Below are positions 3,597 to 55,325 of a DNA stretch of 64,000 bases, one piece after another. The notes under the pieces were generated by a model. The model was not told where the DNA came from and did not search any database. It worked only from the letters and a program-made list of their open reading frames with translations. Source of the DNA: Candidatus Multivoradales bacterium. GTDB lineage: Bacteria; Acidobacteriota; Thermoanaerobaculia; Multivoradales; JAHEKO01. The stretch covers positions 2,006,695 through 2,070,694 of the forward strand of contig CBDCYF010000005.1 in NCBI GenBank assembly GCA_965224065.1. Reading direction: 5' to 3'. Numbering within the stretch: the stretch's first letter is position 1; each line of letters begins with the position of its first letter. The translations under genes were made by a program, and so were the position numbers.

Positions 3597-4331
3597 ATGC
3601 CTTCTTCCCCATCGCCAACCCAACCGGCCGGCGAACCGGCGGTGTGGCCGGCGCGTCGCGGCACGATCGAGGCGCGATTTTGCGGACGTAGTGTCGGGGC
3701 CAGCCGCGAGTCCCCCCGTGAATCACCCCGCGAATCCCCCCGCGAATCCCCTTCCGAATCCCGTAGCCAGGTCCTGGATCGCGTCGCTCCGGAGTCCATG
3801 GATCTCGCGTGGTTGCGCCAGATTCACTCCAACCGTTGCATCGAGGCGCGCCCCGGGGCGGTGGAAGAGGGGGATGCCTTGTGGACGGACCGACGGGGGA
3901 TCGCCCTTTGTATCGCCACCGCCGATTGCGTCCCGGTGGTGATCGCCGGCAACGGCCGACTCGCGGTGGCCCACGCCGGTTGGCGAGGGATCGTCTCGGG
4001 CGTCGTCGCCTCGGCGCTCGAGGCGCTGGGCCAAAGCGCCGAACCGGTCGGCTGGATTGGGCCCTCGATCGGCGTGTGCTGCTACGAAGTCGGAGACGAC
4101 GTGGCCCGGCGGATCGCGGACTCGTCCAGCGCCGACGTCATTCGAGCGCAGGCCGGCCGGCGTCCCCGGGCCGATCTCGCCGCGGCCGTAGAGGCGCAGC
4201 TAACCGCCGGCGGTGTCCATGACGTGCGCCATCTGGGCGGGTGCACCTCGTGCCAGACCGATCTGCTGTGGAGCTACCGCCGCGAAGGTCCCGGCGGGGG
4301 ACGAAATCTGACCTTCGCCTGGATCGGATAA
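3597..4331 (+). CDS. pgeF: PgeF/YfiH-family purine-nucleoside phosphorylase / polyphenol oxidase (DUF152); start uncertain
   Basis: WLRQIHSNRC aligns with E. coli WLEQVHGKDV. The ATADCVPV...AHAGWRG and GPSIGVCCYEVG...SYRR motifs are present. The N-terminal ~65 aa are low-complexity (ESPR)n. An internal ATG at 3798 would give a truncated domain, so the long ORF is preferred. Confidence 0.6.
   Translation: MPSSPSPTQPAGEPAVWPARRGTIEARFCGRSVGASRESPRESPRESPRESPSESRSQVLDRVAPESMDLAWLRQIHSNRCIEARPGAVEEGDALWTDRRGIALCIATADCVPVVIAGNGRLAVAHAGWRGIVSGVVASALEALGQSAEPVGWIGPSIGVCCYEVGDDVARRIADSSSADVIRAQAGRRPRADLAAAVEAQLTAGGVHDVRHLGGCTSCQTDLLWSYRREGPGGGRNLTFAWIG
3708..3767. repeat. Imperfect 12-bp tandem repeat (GAATCCCCCCGC x ~5) in frame within pgeF
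   Basis: The units are gagtccccccgt / gaatcaccccgc / gaatccccccgc / gaatccccttcc / gaatcccgtagc. They encode ESPRESPRESPRESPSESRS, and the reverse strand reads GDSRGDSRGDSR. Confidence 0.8.
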
Positions 4332-4340
4332 CCGAGCAAC

Positions 4341-5426
4341 TCACCAACTGAGACGGCGACCCCCGCCGCGTGGCTCCCGTTCGCGCGAGCGCAGTTGGCC
4401 GCAGGCCGCGCTGACGTCGTCACCACGGCGACGGCGGACGGTCGTCGGCATCCCCCGGGACTTGAGGCGTCTCCGGAAATCCTCGACCACCGTAGGCGAC
4501 GGCTGCTGCATCCGTTCGCCCAGTACCGGATCGGGATTGATCGGGATCAAGTTCGCCTTGACCTTGAGCTCCGAAAAAACGGACACCAGGCGGTCCGCGT
4601 CCTCGACGCGGTCGTTGAAATCACGGATCATGACGTATTCGAGAGTGATTCGACGCCGGCCCTCGAGCGGGTACCGGCCGAGCGCGTCGACCAGCTCCGA
4701 GAGCGGATAGATACGGTTGATCGGCATGATCCGGCTCCGGCGCTCGTCATCGGGAGCGTGAAGCGAGACCGCCAGGTTGGGGCGACGGCGCCAGGCAGCC
4801 ATCCGTTCGAGCGCCGGCAGGATGCCCACCGTGGAGACCGTGATCCGGCGCCACGAGATCTGCTCGGTGAGGATCTCGAGCGCCACTTCGAGCGCATCCA
4901 GATTGAGCAACGGCTCGCCCATTCCCATAAAGACCAGGTTGAGCCCGGCGAGGCCCCGGCTACCGGGTCGGCGCAGGGCCAGGACCTGTCCGACCATCTC
5001 ACCGGCGGTCAGGTTGCGGCCTCCGCCCCAATAGCCGGTGACGCAAAACGCGCAACCCAGGGCGCAACCCGCCTGACTCGACAGACACAACGTGCGCCGC
5101 TCACCTTCGGGAATATCGACGGTCTCGATCTTGACCCCGTCGCCAAGCAGGAGAAGGGCCTTTTCGGTTCCGTCGCTCGAAACGTGCCGCTCGCTGACCA
5201 CCGGTAGGCCCACCCGGAACTCTTCGGAGAGGGCGCGGCGCAGGTCGAGACTCAGGTCGGTCATCTCGCCAAAGTCGACGATGCCGTGGCGGTAGATGTG
5301 ATCGAAGATTTGATCGGCCCGGTACCGCCGGTCGGAAATCGACGAGATCCGCTCGGCCAGTTGCCCGCGGGTCAGACCGAGCAGATCGAGACGCTGTTCG
5401 GGCTGCTGGTGGCTCGGTCGTTCCAA
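4341..5426 (-). CDS. rlmN: 23S rRNA m2A2503 / tRNA m2A37 methyltransferase RlmN (radical SAM)
   Basis: The radical-SAM cluster CALGCAFC and GMGEPLLN are present, and the length (361 aa) and conserved N-terminus (QIFDHIY) fit RlmN. Confidence 0.9.
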   Translation of the reverse strand: MERPSHQQPEQRLDLLGLTRGQLAERISSISDRRYRADQIFDHIYRHGIVDFGEMTDLSLDLRRALSEEFRVGLPVVSERHVSSDGTEKALLLLGDGVKIETVDIPEGERRTLCLSSQAGCALGCAFCVTGYWGGGRNLTAGEMVGQVLALRRPGSRGLAGLNLVFMGMGEPLLNLDALEVALEILTEQISWRRITVSTVGILPALERMAAWRRRPNLAVSLHAPDDERRSRIMPINRIYPLSELVDALGRYPLEGRRRITLEYVMIRDFNDRVEDADRLVSVFSELKVKANLIPINPDPVLGERMQQPSPTVVEDFRRRLKSRGMPTTVRRRRGDDVSAACGQLRSREREPRGGGRRLSW

Positions 5427-5454: not shown

Positions 5455-6447
5455 ATGGAAGAGACCGGACGGCGAGAGTGGATCGAGACCCAGGGCTTCG
5501 ACGTCGCGCGTCTCGAGCCGCTCGCCGGTGACGTCTCGCAGCGCCAGTACTATCGCGCTTATCTGGGGGCTCATCTAGCGTCGCCGGCGACCGCCATTCT
5601 CGCCACCTATCCACCGGAGATTCGCGAGAGCTGCCGCCGTTTTGAGATCTCGACGCGCTTGCTCGAACTGAGAAACGTGCGGGTGCCCCGGATTCTCGCC
5701 CGCGACTGCGATCGCGGTTTGGCGCTGCTCGAAGACGTCGGACCGCTGACCCTCTACGATCTCGCCGACCGGGATTGGAGCGAGCTCGCCCCGCACCTTT
5801 TCGCCGCCGTCGAGATGATCGGCTCGATCCAAACCGTGCCCGCCGATGTCGTCGAAGAGCTCAACCCACCGCTGGACGGCGCCCTGCTGCGACGAGAGCT
5901 CGCTCAGACCCGCGAGTTGCTCCTGGACGAGCCACCGCTGCGCGCCCCAACGGCCGAACGGCGACGGCTACGCGAGACCCTGGACGCGCTGTGCGAGCGT
6001 CTTGCCGCCGGCCCCACGGCCGTGTGCCACCGCGACTTCATGGCCCGCAATCTGGTACCCCTCGACGGAGGAGGCCTCGCCGTCCTGGACCATCAAGACC
6101 TCCGCATCGGACCGGCGCACTACGACCTGGCGTCGCTCCTGAACGACAGCCTCTTTGTGCCACCGGAGCTCGAGCGGGAGCTGCTCGACGCCTACGGGGT
6201 GTTAGGAAAAGACAGGGACGAAAACGGGGACGCCGACCTGGATCTTTACCGGGCCTGCGCCGCCCAGCGCACGCTCAAGGCCGCCGGCACCTTCGCGGCC
6301 TTTGCGCGGCGTGGCTTTTCCCGCCACCTTCCCCTGATCCCACCGACCCTGGCGCGAGCCGCGGCGCACCTGCGGCAGCTCCCCGAAGGGGCCGAGCTTC
6401 CGGAAGAGCTGTTCGAGTCGTGGGAACGCTACGGGCAAACTGAGTGA
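5455..6447 (+). CDS. APH/ChoK-family phosphotransferase, AmgK-like (MurNAc/GlcNAc anomeric kinase family)
   Basis: The Brenner catalytic motif HRDFMARNLV and the DHQDLRIGPAHYDLASLL activation segment are present. The N-terminal GDVSQRQYYR phosphate-binding loop is typical of the AmgK subfamily. Confidence 0.6.
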   Translation: MEETGRREWIETQGFDVARLEPLAGDVSQRQYYRAYLGAHLASPATAILATYPPEIRESCRRFEISTRLLELRNVRVPRILARDCDRGLALLEDVGPLTLYDLADRDWSELAPHLFAAVEMIGSIQTVPADVVEELNPPLDGALLRRELAQTRELLLDEPPLRAPTAERRRLRETLDALCERLAAGPTAVCHRDFMARNLVPLDGGGLAVLDHQDLRIGPAHYDLASLLNDSLFVPPELERELLDAYGVLGKDRDENGDADLDLYRACAAQRTLKAAGTFAAFARRGFSRHLPLIPPTLARAAAHLRQLPEGAELPEELFESWERYGQTE

Positions 6448-6615
6448 CGGTCCTGCCATTGGCCTCGCCAGGGCCGTTTGACCGAGCGCACGAAAATGAC
6501 GTTGGAAGTTCGAGCTCGGTTCGGCGCGAGGGAAACCGAGGCGCGAGCTAGATCACCGAAGGCCGAGTTGCTCGCGCCGTGCCCCGGTGAGGCCAATGGC
6601 AGGACCGTCACTCAA
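6440..6615. repeat. Long inverted repeat: 26-bp perfect arms (TGAGTGACGGTCCTGCCATTGGCCTC, 29/30 with one mismatch) flanking a ~122-bp GC-rich spacer that holds nested palindromes
   Basis: The arms lie at 6441-6466 and 6589-6614 in reverse-complement orientation. The first arm starts on the kinase stop codon. The element sits in the convergent gap before the tatA 3' end. Confidence 0.85.
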
Positions 6616-18509: not shown

Positions 18510-20012
18510 ATGGAAGAACTCTTCGCCCAGGCGACGCTCGTGACGTACTACCTGATTCTCGGGATGCTGGCTCTTTTTGGTGGCCACCGGCTCCAGCTAC
18601 TGCGTCTCTACTATCGCACACGGCACGTCGAACCACCCGAGCCCCGGACACCCGAGGAGTGGCCCGACGTCACGGTCCAGCTCCCGCTGTTCAACGAGAT
18701 GTACGTAGCCGACCGGTTGATCCGTTCGGTCTGTGCGCTCGACTACCCGCGCGAGCGTCTGCACGTCCAGGTTCTGGACGATTCCACCGACGAGACCCGC
18801 AAAATCGTCGCGGCGACGGTCGAGGAGTATCGCAACCGCGGGTTCTCGATCGAGCATCTGCACCGCACCGACCGCACCGGTTTCAAGGCCGGGGCGCTGG
18901 AGGCCGGGCTGGCGACTGCCCGTGGCGATCTGATCACCATCTTTGACGCCGATTTTGTGCCGATCCCCGAGTACCTCAAGCGCATCGTTCCCTATTTCAC
19001 CGACCTCGCCACCGGCGAGGAGCTCGGCATGGTGCAGGCGTGCTGGGACCACATCAACCGCGACTACTCTCTGTTGACACGCATCCAGGCGGTCTTTCTC
19101 GACGGCCATTTTCTGATCGAGCACGCGGCGCGCAATCGCTCCGGCCGTTTTTTCAACTTCAACGGCACCGCTGGGATGTGGCGCCGGCAGGCGATCGAGG
19201 ACGCCGGCGGCTGGCAGCACGACACGCTGACCGAGGATCTCGACCTCTCCTACCGGGCCCAGCTCGCCGGCTGGAAGTTCCTGTTCCTCCCCCACCTCAA
19301 AGTGCCCGCAGAGCTGCCGGTCGAGGTCAATGCGTTCAAGCGGCAGCAATTCCGCTGGGCCAAGGGATCGATCCAGACCGGGCGCAAACTGCTGTCCCGG
19401 ATCTTGCGCGCCCGCCTGCCGTGGAAGGTCAAGCTCGAGGCGCTGATTCACCTGACCAACAACGCCAGCTACTTGCTGATGGTGGGGCTGTCGCTTCTGA
19501 TCTTCCCGGCGATGACCGTCCGCCGCGGCAGCGAGGCGTGGAGCCTGTTGACTATCGACTTGCCTCTCTTTTTGTGCGCCACCGTGTCGGTCCTGCTTTT
19601 CTATCTCGCCAGCCAGCTCGCGGCCGGGCGTGGGCTCGGGCGCGGGCTCAAACACTTGGCCCCGCTCATGGGCCTGGGCATCGGCCTGGCGATCAACAAC
19701 TCCCGTGCGGTGATCCAGGGACTGGGCAGAGACGTGGGCGTTTTCGAGCGCACGCCAAAGTACAAGATCGAGCACAGCGGCGACGGCTGGTTTGGCAAGA
19801 AGTACCGCGTGGGCGCCGACCTGTCGACGGTGCTCGAAGGCATCCTCGCCGCCTGGTTTGTGTGCGCGTTTGTGCTGGCGTTCAAGATGGGGATGTGGAT
19901 GTCGCTGCCGTTTCTCTATCTGTTCCTGCAAGGCTTCTGCTACATGTACTTGCTGTCGATGTTCTCCACCGGCCGCGGCCGCTGGCGTCCCACCGAGCCG
20001 GCACCGGGCTAG
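18510..20012 (+). CDS. Family-2 glycosyltransferase, processive beta-glycan synthase type (cellulose-synthase-like)
   Basis: It shows two N-terminal TM segments, a GT2 catalytic domain and C-terminal TM segments. The catalytic-domain motifs are DDSTDET, DAD (FDADF), TED (LTEDLD) and the QxxRW motif FKRQQFRWAKG. Confidence 0.8.
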   Translation: MEELFAQATLVTYYLILGMLALFGGHRLQLLRLYYRTRHVEPPEPRTPEEWPDVTVQLPLFNEMYVADRLIRSVCALDYPRERLHVQVLDDSTDETRKIVAATVEEYRNRGFSIEHLHRTDRTGFKAGALEAGLATARGDLITIFDADFVPIPEYLKRIVPYFTDLATGEELGMVQACWDHINRDYSLLTRIQAVFLDGHFLIEHAARNRSGRFFNFNGTAGMWRRQAIEDAGGWQHDTLTEDLDLSYRAQLAGWKFLFLPHLKVPAELPVEVNAFKRQQFRWAKGSIQTGRKLLSRILRARLPWKVKLEALIHLTNNASYLLMVGLSLLIFPAMTVRRGSEAWSLLTIDLPLFLCATVSVLLFYLASQLAAGRGLGRGLKHLAPLMGLGIGLAINNSRAVIQGLGRDVGVFERTPKYKIEHSGDGWFGKKYRVGADLSTVLEGILAAWFVCAFVLAFKMGMWMSLPFLYLFLQGFCYMYLLSMFSTGRGRWRPTEPAPG

Positions 20013-20116: not shown

Positions 20117-20196
20117 CTGAAGCGGCCGCCGTCTCTGGCGGCCGATCATCGGTGTTGGAGCGACCAACGGCTGGCAGAGACGCCAGCCGCTTCAGG
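20117..20196. repeat. Pair of REP-like palindromic elements in inverted orientation (TGAAGCGGCCGCCGTCTCTGGCGGCCG and GGCTGGCAGAGACGCCAGCCGCTTCAGG)
   Basis: Each forms a 7-8-bp GC stem around a GTCTCT/AGAGAC loop. The two differ by compensatory stem changes (CCGCC/GGCGG versus CTGGC/GCCAG). The 28-mer recurs identically at 53827-53854. Confidence 0.8.
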
Positions 20197-20553: not shown

Positions 20554-21111
20554 ATGCAACCCCAAGTCAAGCCCGCCGCGCGCACGGTCTCGGTGCGGCC
20601 GGTCCACCCCGGTGACTCGGTCCTGCTCGACCGCTGGCGCCGCGAGCCCGAGGTGCGCCGACACCAGCCACTCAACGACTCCACCGTCGCGCAGCTCTAC
20701 TCCGAGCTGTCCCACCAGCACGTTAATGACCTCTACCAGGGCCGGGGCGAGAAGTTCCAGTGGGTTGTCCTTGCCGACGGCCACCCCGCCGGGTGGATCA
20801 CCCTGGTGGTGACCAATTGGACCCACGGCCTGGCCGAGATCGGCTACGCGCTCTCGACGGCCTTCCAACGACAGGGCCTGATGCCCCAAGCGCTCCGCAT
20901 CATTCTGCGGGATCTGTTCACCCGGACCGGGCTGCGGCGCATCGAGGCCCGCTGCGCGATCCAGAACGAGGGCTCGTACAAGGTGCTCGAACGGCTCGGC
21001 TTTCACCGCGAGGGCCGGCTGCGCGACTACTTTGTTCTCGACGGTCAAACCGTCGACAACTACCTCTACGCGATCCTGCGGCGCGAATTCCTGCGGATCC
21101 AAAAACGGTGA
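20554..21111 (+). CDS. GNAT-family N-acetyltransferase (RimJ/RimL-like)
   Basis: The acetyl-CoA binding motif RQGLMPQALRIIL fits the Q/RxxGxG/A pattern, and the C-terminal LGFHREGRLRDYF is typical of RimL/RimJ-type GNATs. Confidence 0.75.
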   Translation: MQPQVKPAARTVSVRPVHPGDSVLLDRWRREPEVRRHQPLNDSTVAQLYSELSHQHVNDLYQGRGEKFQWVVLADGHPAGWITLVVTNWTHGLAEIGYALSTAFQRQGLMPQALRIILRDLFTRTGLRRIEARCAIQNEGSYKVLERLGFHREGRLRDYFVLDGQTVDNYLYAILRREFLRIQKR

Positions 21112-53065: not shown

Positions 53066-53713
53066 GTGGCCGACCCTCTTCCCGTCAACTACATCGCGGT
53101 GGACGGCCCGATCGGGGTCGGCAAGACCACGCTGGTCGAGTTGCTGGCCGAGCGCTTCGACGGGGTCAAGATCTTAGAAGACGTCTCCAACCCGTTTCTG
53201 CCCTCGTTCTACGAAGACCGGCCCGGCTCCGCCTTCCAAACCGAACTCTATTTCCTGCTGTCGCGCTACAAACAGCAACAGGACATCGCCCAGCGCGAGC
53301 TCTTCGACCGTCTGCTGGTCGCCGACTACACCTTCCCGAAGAATCGAATCTTTGCGTACCTCAACTTGTCGGACGACGAGTTGATGCTTTTCGACAAGCT
53401 CTACACGCTGCTCGAGCCCAACCTGGCGGTGCCCGATCTGGTCATCTACCTGGTCGCCAATCTCGAGACCTGTATGCAGCGCATCGGGCGGCGCGATCGC
53501 ACGTTCGAGCGCGAGATGTCCGAGGACTACATGCGCGAGCTGATCGACGCCTACAACCACTACTACCACTACTACAACCGCTCTCCACTGATGGTCGTCG
53601 ACACCCGGGAGCTCAACTTCGCCGACCGGCCCGACGACTTCGACGACCTGGTGCAGCGGATCTCCAAGCCCATCAAGGGAACCCAGTACTACGTGCCGCT
53701 GGGCTCGCGCTGA
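53066..53713 (+). CDS. Deoxynucleoside kinase (dCK/dGK/dAK family)
   Basis: The P-loop DGPIGVGKTT is followed by ERF/xxSxxYxDRLF-type motifs and a LID region. Confidence 0.8.
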   Translation: MADPLPVNYIAVDGPIGVGKTTLVELLAERFDGVKILEDVSNPFLPSFYEDRPGSAFQTELYFLLSRYKQQQDIAQRELFDRLLVADYTFPKNRIFAYLNLSDDELMLFDKLYTLLEPNLAVPDLVIYLVANLETCMQRIGRRDRTFEREMSEDYMRELIDAYNHYYHYYNRSPLMVVDTRELNFADRPDDFDDLVQRISKPIKGTQYYVPLGSR

Positions 53714-53854
53714 AGCGGCCCGCTCAGAACTTGAAGCGGCCGTCGTCCCTGGCGGCCGGGTGGTGGTGTCGCGACTACGGCTGGCAGAGGCGCCAGCCGC
53801 TTCAAATTGGGTCACCCGCCCGGCGTTTGAAGCGGCCGCCGTCTCTGGCGGCCG
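53708..53854. repeat. Cluster of four REP-like palindromic elements (same family as 20117-20196), forming a BIME-like array between dNK and thiG
   Basis: A partial copy overlaps the dNK stop at 53708-53727. A variant, TTGAAGCGGCCGTCGTCCCTGGCGGCCG, lies at 53731-53758. An inverted copy, CGGCTGGCAGAGGCGCCAGCCGCTTCAA, lies at 53778-53805. An exact 28-mer copy lies at 53827-53854. Confidence 0.8.
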
Positions 53855-53942
53855 GGCCTCTTAGAGTAGAGGTAGGGGCGGGGCTTGCCCCCGCCCGAAC
53901 AACCGCAAAAATCACACGGTTCCCGGATACAATCCCCTTCCC

Positions 53943-54749
53943 ATGACCACCACCGCCCCAACCGACACGTCGCTCGCCGTCGAACCCCTGACGATCGCCG
54001 ACCGCACGTTTACGTCGCGGCTGATCCTCGGCACGGGCAAGTACGACGACTCAGAGACCATGCTCCGGGCCTTCGAGGCCTCGGGCACCGAGATGATCAC
54101 CGTGGCGCTCCGACGGGTGCCGCTCGACGAAATCGGCAAGGGCTCGCTGATCGATCAAATCGACCAGAAAAAGTTCCTGCTGCTGCCCAACACCGCCGGC
54201 TGCTATACCGCCGAAGACGCCGTGCGCACCGCCCGGCTGGCGCGTGAGCTGGGCGGCTGGAGCTGGGTCAAGCTCGAAGTCATCGGGGACGAAAAAACCC
54301 TGTTCCCCGACAACGTCGCGACCTTAGAAGCCGCCGAGACCCTCATTGCCGAGGGATTCACCGTCCTGCCTTACACCAGCGACGACCCGATCGTGTGCAA
54401 AAAACTCGAGGAGCTGGGTTGCGCCGCGGTCATGCCGCTGGCGGCACCGATCGGCTCCGGGATGGGGGTCCGCAACCCCGCCAACATCCGGATCATCGTC
54501 GAGCAGTCGGAGGTGCCGGTGATCGTCGACGCCGGGGTCGGCACGGCCTCCGACGCCGCCGTCGCCATGGAGCTCGGTGTCGACGGCGTGCTGATGAACA
54601 CCGGCGTCGCGGGCGCAAAAGACCCGGTGCGGATGGCACGCGCGATGAAGCTGGCGGTCGAAGGCGGGTGGCTCGCCGCCCACGCCGGCCGGATCCCGAA
54701 AAAACTCTACGCCACCGCTTCCTCGCCGCTCGAAGGCCTGATCGAGTAG
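53943..54749 (+). CDS. thiG: Thiazole synthase
   Basis: The ThiG TIM-barrel opens [12 protein letters not shown], the Schiff-base Lys lies in VKLEVIGD, and [13 protein letters not shown] is present. Confidence 0.9.
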
Positions 54750-55248: not shown

Positions 55249-55325
55249 GCACCGATAGCTCAATTGGATAGAGCACCTGACTACGGATCAGGAGGTTGGG
55301 GATTCGAGTTCTCCTCGGTGCACCA
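55249..55325 (+). tRNA. tRNA-Arg (anticodon ACG), with encoded CCA
   Basis: The 7-bp acceptor stem is GCACCGA/TCGGTGC. The D-arm is AGCTCAATTGGATAGAGC. The anticodon stem CCTGA/TCAGG encloses loop CTACGGA. The T-arm is GGGGATTCGAGTTCTCC, and the 3' end is ACCA. It closely resembles E. coli tRNA-Arg(ACG). Confidence 0.85.

Follow-up and report, generated by a model that had tools for sequence, protein, structure and literature searches.

A probable lineage-specific family of GAAG-tagged extragenic palindromes in Thermoanaerobaculia-type Acidobacteriota

The pair of inverted hairpins at positions 20118-20194 raises the question of whether they are a local feature of one spacer or copies of an element that is dispersed through the genome and its relatives. 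The window, by which we mean the whole 64,000-nt stretch of DNA that was analysed, has a G+C content of 65.5% and carries similar hairpins at a second place, 53732-53854. An earlier note on this DNA had read the structures as a dispersed, REP/BIME-like palindromic family with compensatory stem variants. That core reading holds, given the dispersal of the copies among related genomes, their extragenic position with a 3' bias, their arrangement in doublets and arrays, and their turnover between relatives. We consider it probable, at roughly 75%, that the window elements belong to a lineage-specific family of REP/REPIN/BIME-type repetitive extragenic palindromes. The type of element is familiar, but this family of it, from little-studied soil and sediment bacteria, had not been described; the searchable literature contained neither a description of a GAAG-tagged family nor relevant work on REPs of Thermoanaerobaculia.

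Hairpins and gene context at the two window loci

The first locus is the 541-nt spacer that separates a family-2 glycosyltransferase (GT2) gene, whose end is at 20012, from the gene for a GNAT acetyltransferase (20554-21111). The two genes are on the plus strand, and 3' of the GNAT gene there is a UvrD/PcrA gene on the minus strand. Hairpin A (20118-20144, plus strand) opens with the tag TGAAG (20118-20122) and continues with an 8-bp stem, CGGCCGCC/GGCGGCCG, around the 6-nt loop GTCTCT, the stem length and the loop being as the earlier note had described; it scores 50.7 bits with R1, a covariance model built from 65 distinct copies of the family. An inner linker of 23 nt (ATCATCGGTGTTGGAGCGACCAA, 20145-20167), which is partly self-complementary and can be aligned with the linkers of other doublets, separates it from the inverted hairpin B (20168-20194, minus strand; tag TGAAG at 20194-20190, stem CGGCTGGC/GCCAGCCG, loop GTCTCT; R1 54.1 bits). 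On the plus strand hairpin B reads CGGCTGGC, AGAGAC, GCCAGCCG and then CTTCA. The inverted variant around AGAGAC had thus been recognised correctly, but its stem, previously given as 7 bp, is 8 bp long when the outer C-G pair is counted, and the distance between the two hairpins is not 30 nt: it is 24 nt between the strings that had been quoted and 23 nt between the stems.

Two stem pairs distinguish hairpin B from hairpin A: where A has C-G, B has U-A in one and G-C in the other. Both changes are compensatory, as had been claimed for the stem variants. When folded as RNA, the locus-1 doublet forms one long hairpin of -55.8 kcal/mol (z = -5.3), and as DNA it reaches -31.8 kcal/mol (z = -4.9), so that the folding check proposed earlier found a strongly stable structure; the z-scores of the window elements range from -4.3 to -5.3. 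In the long-hairpin fold the differences between A and B become internal mismatches, so that what the compensatory changes maintain is the pair of small hairpins and not the long one.

The second locus is the 229-nt spacer between a deoxynucleoside kinase (dNK) gene ending at 53713 and thiG, which starts at 53943, again with both genes on the plus strand; both window loci are thus intergenic and lie between co-directional genes. Hairpin A' (53732-53758, plus strand; stem CGGCCGTC/GGCGGCCG with one G-U/G-T pair, loop GTCCCT; R1 47.1 bits) differs from hairpin A by two mismatches. It is followed by a 19-nt inner linker (53759-53777) and by hairpin B' (53778-53804, minus strand; stem CGGCTGGC/GCCAGCCG, loop GCCTCT on the minus strand; R1 49.9 bits), which is of the same arm subtype as hairpin B at the first locus; the 28-mer of hairpin B has a three-mismatch match here, at 53779-53806. 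A second hairpin A lies at 53828-53854 (plus strand, R1 49.2 bits) and is an exact copy of 20118-20144. The exact repeat reported between the two loci is therefore real for this 27-mer but not for a 28-mer, since one more base on either side breaks the identity. Locus 2 as a whole consists of a doublet and one further hairpin, A'(+) B'(-) A(+), in an alternating cluster. In both window doublets the left arm is of the CG(C/T)C type (A) and the right arm of the TGGC type (B), and their linkers can be aligned; the doublet consequently appears to be the unit that is copied.

A scan of the whole window with R1, with filters off, returned exactly five copies, at 47-54 bits, and the next match scored 15.9 bits; 100 dinucleotide shuffles gave no repeat matches. 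What is visible in these 64 kb of the source genome is thus five hairpins at two loci. A candidate degenerate remnant of the element ends, CTGAAGCGGCCCGCTCAG (53710-53727, plus strand), overlaps the TGA stop codon of the dNK gene. Its assignment is uncertain: it has no R1 score, and the dNK stop codon is in the same place in one relative (L102).

No sigma-70-like promoter was found at either window locus in a promoter scan, and a consensus scan for intrinsic terminators (hairpin plus U-tract) likewise found none at either; the bases 3' of the family hairpins are G/T-mixed. At the gathering score, Rfam identified nothing in the window except a tRNA, and at an E-value threshold the two loci gave only sub-threshold matches to hairpin-like miRNA models. 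The tRNA gene (55249-55322; Rfam RF00005, 64.7 bits) lies about 500 nt 3' of thiG.

Two other structured regions of the window are recorded here in their own right. A separate G+C hairpin, GGGGCGGGGCTTGCCCCCGCCC, is found at 53876-53897, just 5' of thiG, without a U-tract; in the closest relative, the equivalent place is occupied by another hairpin, GGGGACACCATGCAGCATGGTGTCCCC, with a T-rich run after it. Far from both loci, at 6441-6614, is a near-perfect long palindrome of 174 nt, with 34-nt arms that are 94% complementary and an RNA fold of -116.5 kcal/mol (z = -10.5). It starts at the TGA stop codon of an ORF at 5455-6447 (plus strand) and lies between convergent ORFs. Its sequence is unrelated to the REP family, and no copies of it occurred in the 229 loci examined.

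Definition, host range and turnover of the family

Across its copies, the unit is about 27 nt long and has the tag (Y)TGAAG on one side, a stem of 8 bp of the form CGGCnnnC/GnnnGCCG and a 6-nt loop belonging to one of two classes, GYCYCT or CWCCGT. A hairpin search that did not require the tag found (Y)TGAAG on exactly one side of every family hairpin; among 133 hairpins, the tag bases were present in the following numbers: T 127, G 133, A 128, A 130 and G 132.

Genomes, one per GTDB species, were scanned with the pattern TGAAGCGGC-N4-GYCYCT-N4-GCC, in which the core of the stem is left free. At least 99 stretches match, dominated by metagenome-assembled genomes (MAGs) of Thermoanaerobaculia and other Acidobacteriota; 57 of the 99 listed stretches come from a handful of Acidobacteriota/Thermoanaerobaculia MAGs. 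Megablast found no match between the window and any of the 99, so that the source genome is not one of those listed. Copies are present in at least 22 separate 8-kb blocks of OZ245024.1, a complete genome of 5.05 Mb (Ca. Multivoradales, class Thermoanaerobaculia), and two genes of the window are about 76% identical in amino-acid sequence to genes of this genome. The claim of a dispersed family, not confined to the two loci, is thereby borne out at the level of the family, with the unit present in many related genomes. In almost all Acidobacteriota/Thermoanaerobaculia copies, the N4/N4 positions left free are complementary to each other (the main types being CGGC/GCCG, CGCC/GGCG, CGTC/GGCG and CGAC/GTCG); in the single matches from unrelated taxa, the 'stems' are unpaired, as expected by chance. 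Judged by these sequence matches, the family is specific, among the matches listed, to a clade of Thermoanaerobaculia-type Acidobacteriota. Perfect family copies were also seen on a contig binned as Myxococcales (L096) and on one binned as Planctomycetaceae (L047), which suggests that these are mis-binned Thermoanaerobaculia contigs or, less likely, that the host range is wider.

Metagenome contigs scanned with the commonest stem gave at least 120 further stretches. In a search anchored on the tag, with the stem left free, the family loci (1.12 Mb) yielded 255 hairpins and the other loci (0.30 Mb) yielded 8, four of them on two contigs that should probably be counted with the family. The stem CGGCCGGC/GCCGGCCG makes up 200 of the 255 tagged hairpins, a share that is inflated because the metagenome pattern fixed that stem, while the B-type stem CGGCTGGC/GCCAGCCG is found among the 255 only in the window. 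Over 65 distinct copies, 97.9% of the stem cells are paired and double-sided changes occur at two of the eight pairs; controls in slid registers were all far lower. Because the search pattern prescribed several columns of the stem, their invariance is uninformative. The compensatory stem changes mark sub-families. The earlier note had argued from such changes for selection on the structure rather than on the sequence. The compensatory pairs do exist, but the family is mostly conserved in sequence, as the 200 identical stems illustrate, and copying rather than structure-only selection explains most of the similarity.

The copies occur most commonly as singlets, which account for 60 of 82 clusters. 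There are 25 tail-out inverted doublets, both window doublets included, with a length of about 73-77 nt and linkers of mostly 18-23 nt (43 nt in two cases). Larger arrays are also seen: one (L006) has an 87-nt unit repeated 6.9 times, as head-to-tail doublets, and another (L067) is a run of 14 hairpins that switch both orientation and loop class (CWCCGT or GYCYCT) from one to the next. By crude GC3-based gene calls, 56 of the 63 scorable clusters are intergenic (20 between convergent, 29 between co-directional and 7 between divergent genes), which places the copies mostly 3' of genes and few of them between divergent genes. Contigs of short-read MAGs often end within about 100 nt of a copy (L004, L012, L036, L038, L075, L077, L097 and others), because a dispersed repeat breaks assemblies.

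The spacers that correspond to the two window loci differ in content between relatives. The dNK-thiG spacer, with its 229 nt and three hairpins in the window, measures 77, 163, 8 and 91 nt in four relatives with conserved synteny (dNK identity 83-94%), and none of these has a copy. In a fifth relative (L103, at 3674-4414 and 5284-5401), an enoyl-CoA hydratase gene lies between dNK and thiG, and a diverged doublet, scoring 27 and 21 bits with R1, is found 3' of thiG. The GT2-GNAT spacer of the closest relative (L107, 89% identical) has one copy, of another subtype and about 400 nt from the stop codon, around which the spacer is otherwise not alignable with the window. In the more distant L108 and L109, this spacer has no copy, and in one of them the genes overlap. 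Syntenic spacers that are empty or differently filled thus indicate that copies have been gained and lost over the divergence time of these genomes. In three further cases (L016 at 1464, L067 at 5574 and L030 at 1044), the TGA of the tag TGAAG coincides with the stop of the neighbouring gene (distance -3), and an empty site in L102 has TGAGGTTCAGAAGCGGGG, which resembles the tag and the start of the stem, its tag-like part being CAGAAGCGG. Together, the stop-codon overlaps and this empty site may hint at a target preference.

Origin of the copies and rival explanations

Both the mobilisation of the family and its function at the RNA level are inferred. New copies would arise from other copies, with the doublet as the unit copied, most likely via single-stranded DNA. 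A trans-acting transposase of the HUH/Y1 (RAYT-like) type could recognise the hairpin together with its 5' tag, as the RAYT of E. coli does with GTAG REPs, and the compensatory changes between sub-families would then have been kept because the small individual hairpin is needed for this recognition. Where the element is transcribed in the 3' UTR of the upstream gene, the structure of about -56 kcal/mol probably acts as a barrier to exonucleases at the 3' side or as an attenuator of read-through. Such an element between co-directional genes (GT2 to GNAT, dNK to thiG) would be an RNA barrier or attenuator and not a canonical intrinsic terminator.

In the described systems, GTAG-type REPs go together with RAYTs (HUH/Y1 transposases), no transposase is known for CGTC REPs, and the only tyrosine transposases reported from Acidobacteria are flanked by terminal inverted repeats (TIRYTs) and not by REPs (PMC3733652). 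A profile HMM covering RAYTs and TIRYTs was built from 30 published sequences (supplement of PMC3733652) and recovered the E. coli rayT control at 7e-39. In six-frame searches, it found no RAYT or TIRYT in the window and 105 genome loci (797 kb), nor in 120 metagenome stretches (597 kb), and neither tblastn with E. coli RayT nor a scan for the HUH and NPV(K/R)AG motifs gave a match to a RAYT in the repeat-bearing DNA searched. These searches covered the window and 225 stretches, about 1.39 Mb in total, to be read against the fact that a RAYT (Pfam PF01797-type) is normally a single-copy gene in its genome, usually with REPs on its flanks. Clustering of the 776 ORFs within 1.5 kb of copies revealed no recurrent transposase-like family; the clusters comprised kinases, sigma factors, peptidases and the like. 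The genes lying between nearby REP pairs (L094, L067, L044, L024 and L031) proved on inspection to be ordinary ones.

A more ambitious version of the REP reading would make the GAAG elements a third lineage of tagged REPs, restricted to Thermoanaerobaculia-type Acidobacteriota, moved by a RAYT of altered specificity or by a non-RAYT enzyme, and copied as a doublet with two deliberately different arms. The non-RAYT enzyme is considered because no RAYT was found beside some 180 repeat-bearing stretches. We put this version forward only tentatively, as a possible but rather doubtful one.

Three other explanations were weighed against copies of a REP-type family. The near-perfect inverted ends of the 73-77 nt doublet, its dispersal and its polymorphism between relatives are what would be expected of a MITE, that is, what deletion has left of a DDE-type insertion sequence, with the CTGAAGCGGCCG... 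ends serving as terminal inverted repeats for the transposase of the parent element. However, no target-site duplication was present at any of the 25 doublets, where the palindrome simply continues for 1-3 nt into the flanks. The two ends are tagged hairpins in their own right, singlets are the commonest form and alternating arrays are unusual for MITEs, and no IS-like gene recurs near the copies; a MITE origin is accordingly improbable. A degenerate or miniature CRISPR array would account for the regular spacing of 77-89 nt at some related loci. However, singlets and doublets make up most of the copies, cas genes were not seen beside them, and where repeats do follow one another they alternate in orientation and the 'spacers' are conserved linkers. 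The last two features exclude a CRISPR array, an origin to which we attach next to no weight.

The strong bias towards the 3' sides of genes, the very stable structures and the compensatory pairs could be read as the marks of host regulatory hairpins, such as terminators, attenuators or sites for gyrase or nucleoid proteins, selected site by site and not mobile. Against this stands the near identity of tag, stem and loop across unrelated intergenic sites and genomes, which is accompanied by tandem arrays of up to 14 units and by the lack of a U-tract; moreover, the syntenic spacers of close relatives are without the element or have it elsewhere. Hairpins selected in this way at each site are thus an unlikely explanation; a copied element could still have taken on a host regulatory role secondarily, by exaptation.

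Relation to known palindromic repeats

To our knowledge, nearly all work on REP/REPIN systems concerns Proteobacteria. The family described here, which is easily recognised and has a tag that is one base off, widens the known host range of REP-like elements to a class of Acidobacteriota made up largely of uncultured members, and it leaves the understanding of what REPs are unchanged. If a cognate transposase exists, the GAAG family would be a natural test of how tag and hairpin are recognised together. In practical terms, the repeat accounts for breaks in short-read MAG contigs of these organisms, and it is usable as a marker for binning and strain typing.

The described REP super-families are tagged GTAG or CGTC (PMC3733652). 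Like the CGTC REPs (Rickettsia RPE-like elements, Caulobacter; Di Nocera et al., 2013), the GAAG elements are tagged palindromes with no dedicated transposase gene found to date. They differ in the tag; the CGTC that is seen here is a chance occurrence within the stem of a single variant. The BIMEs of E. coli are unrelated in sequence, and the subtypes are differently defined here, by the loop class (GYCYCT as opposed to CWCCGT) or, in the window, by two stem pairs. Their architecture is nevertheless the same: two subtypes alternate in opposite orientation, joined by short conserved linkers, in groups of two to more than ten units.

The closest parallels are with the GTAG REPs and REPINs of E. 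coli and of the REPIN/RAYT system of Pseudomonas fluorescens. The differences are that the tag (T)GAAG stands here in the position of GTAG, so that the tag is not literally the same, that the host belongs to the Acidobacteriota (Thermoanaerobaculia), and that no flanked RAYT gene is seen in the roughly 1.39 Mb of repeat-bearing DNA. In other respects the two agree. Both are short, G+C-rich, imperfect palindromes with an unpaired tag on one side only; both are extragenic and biased towards 3' positions, and occur as singlets and as inverted doublets able to form a single long hairpin; and in both, sub-families differ by compensatory stem changes and the content of copies varies between relatives.
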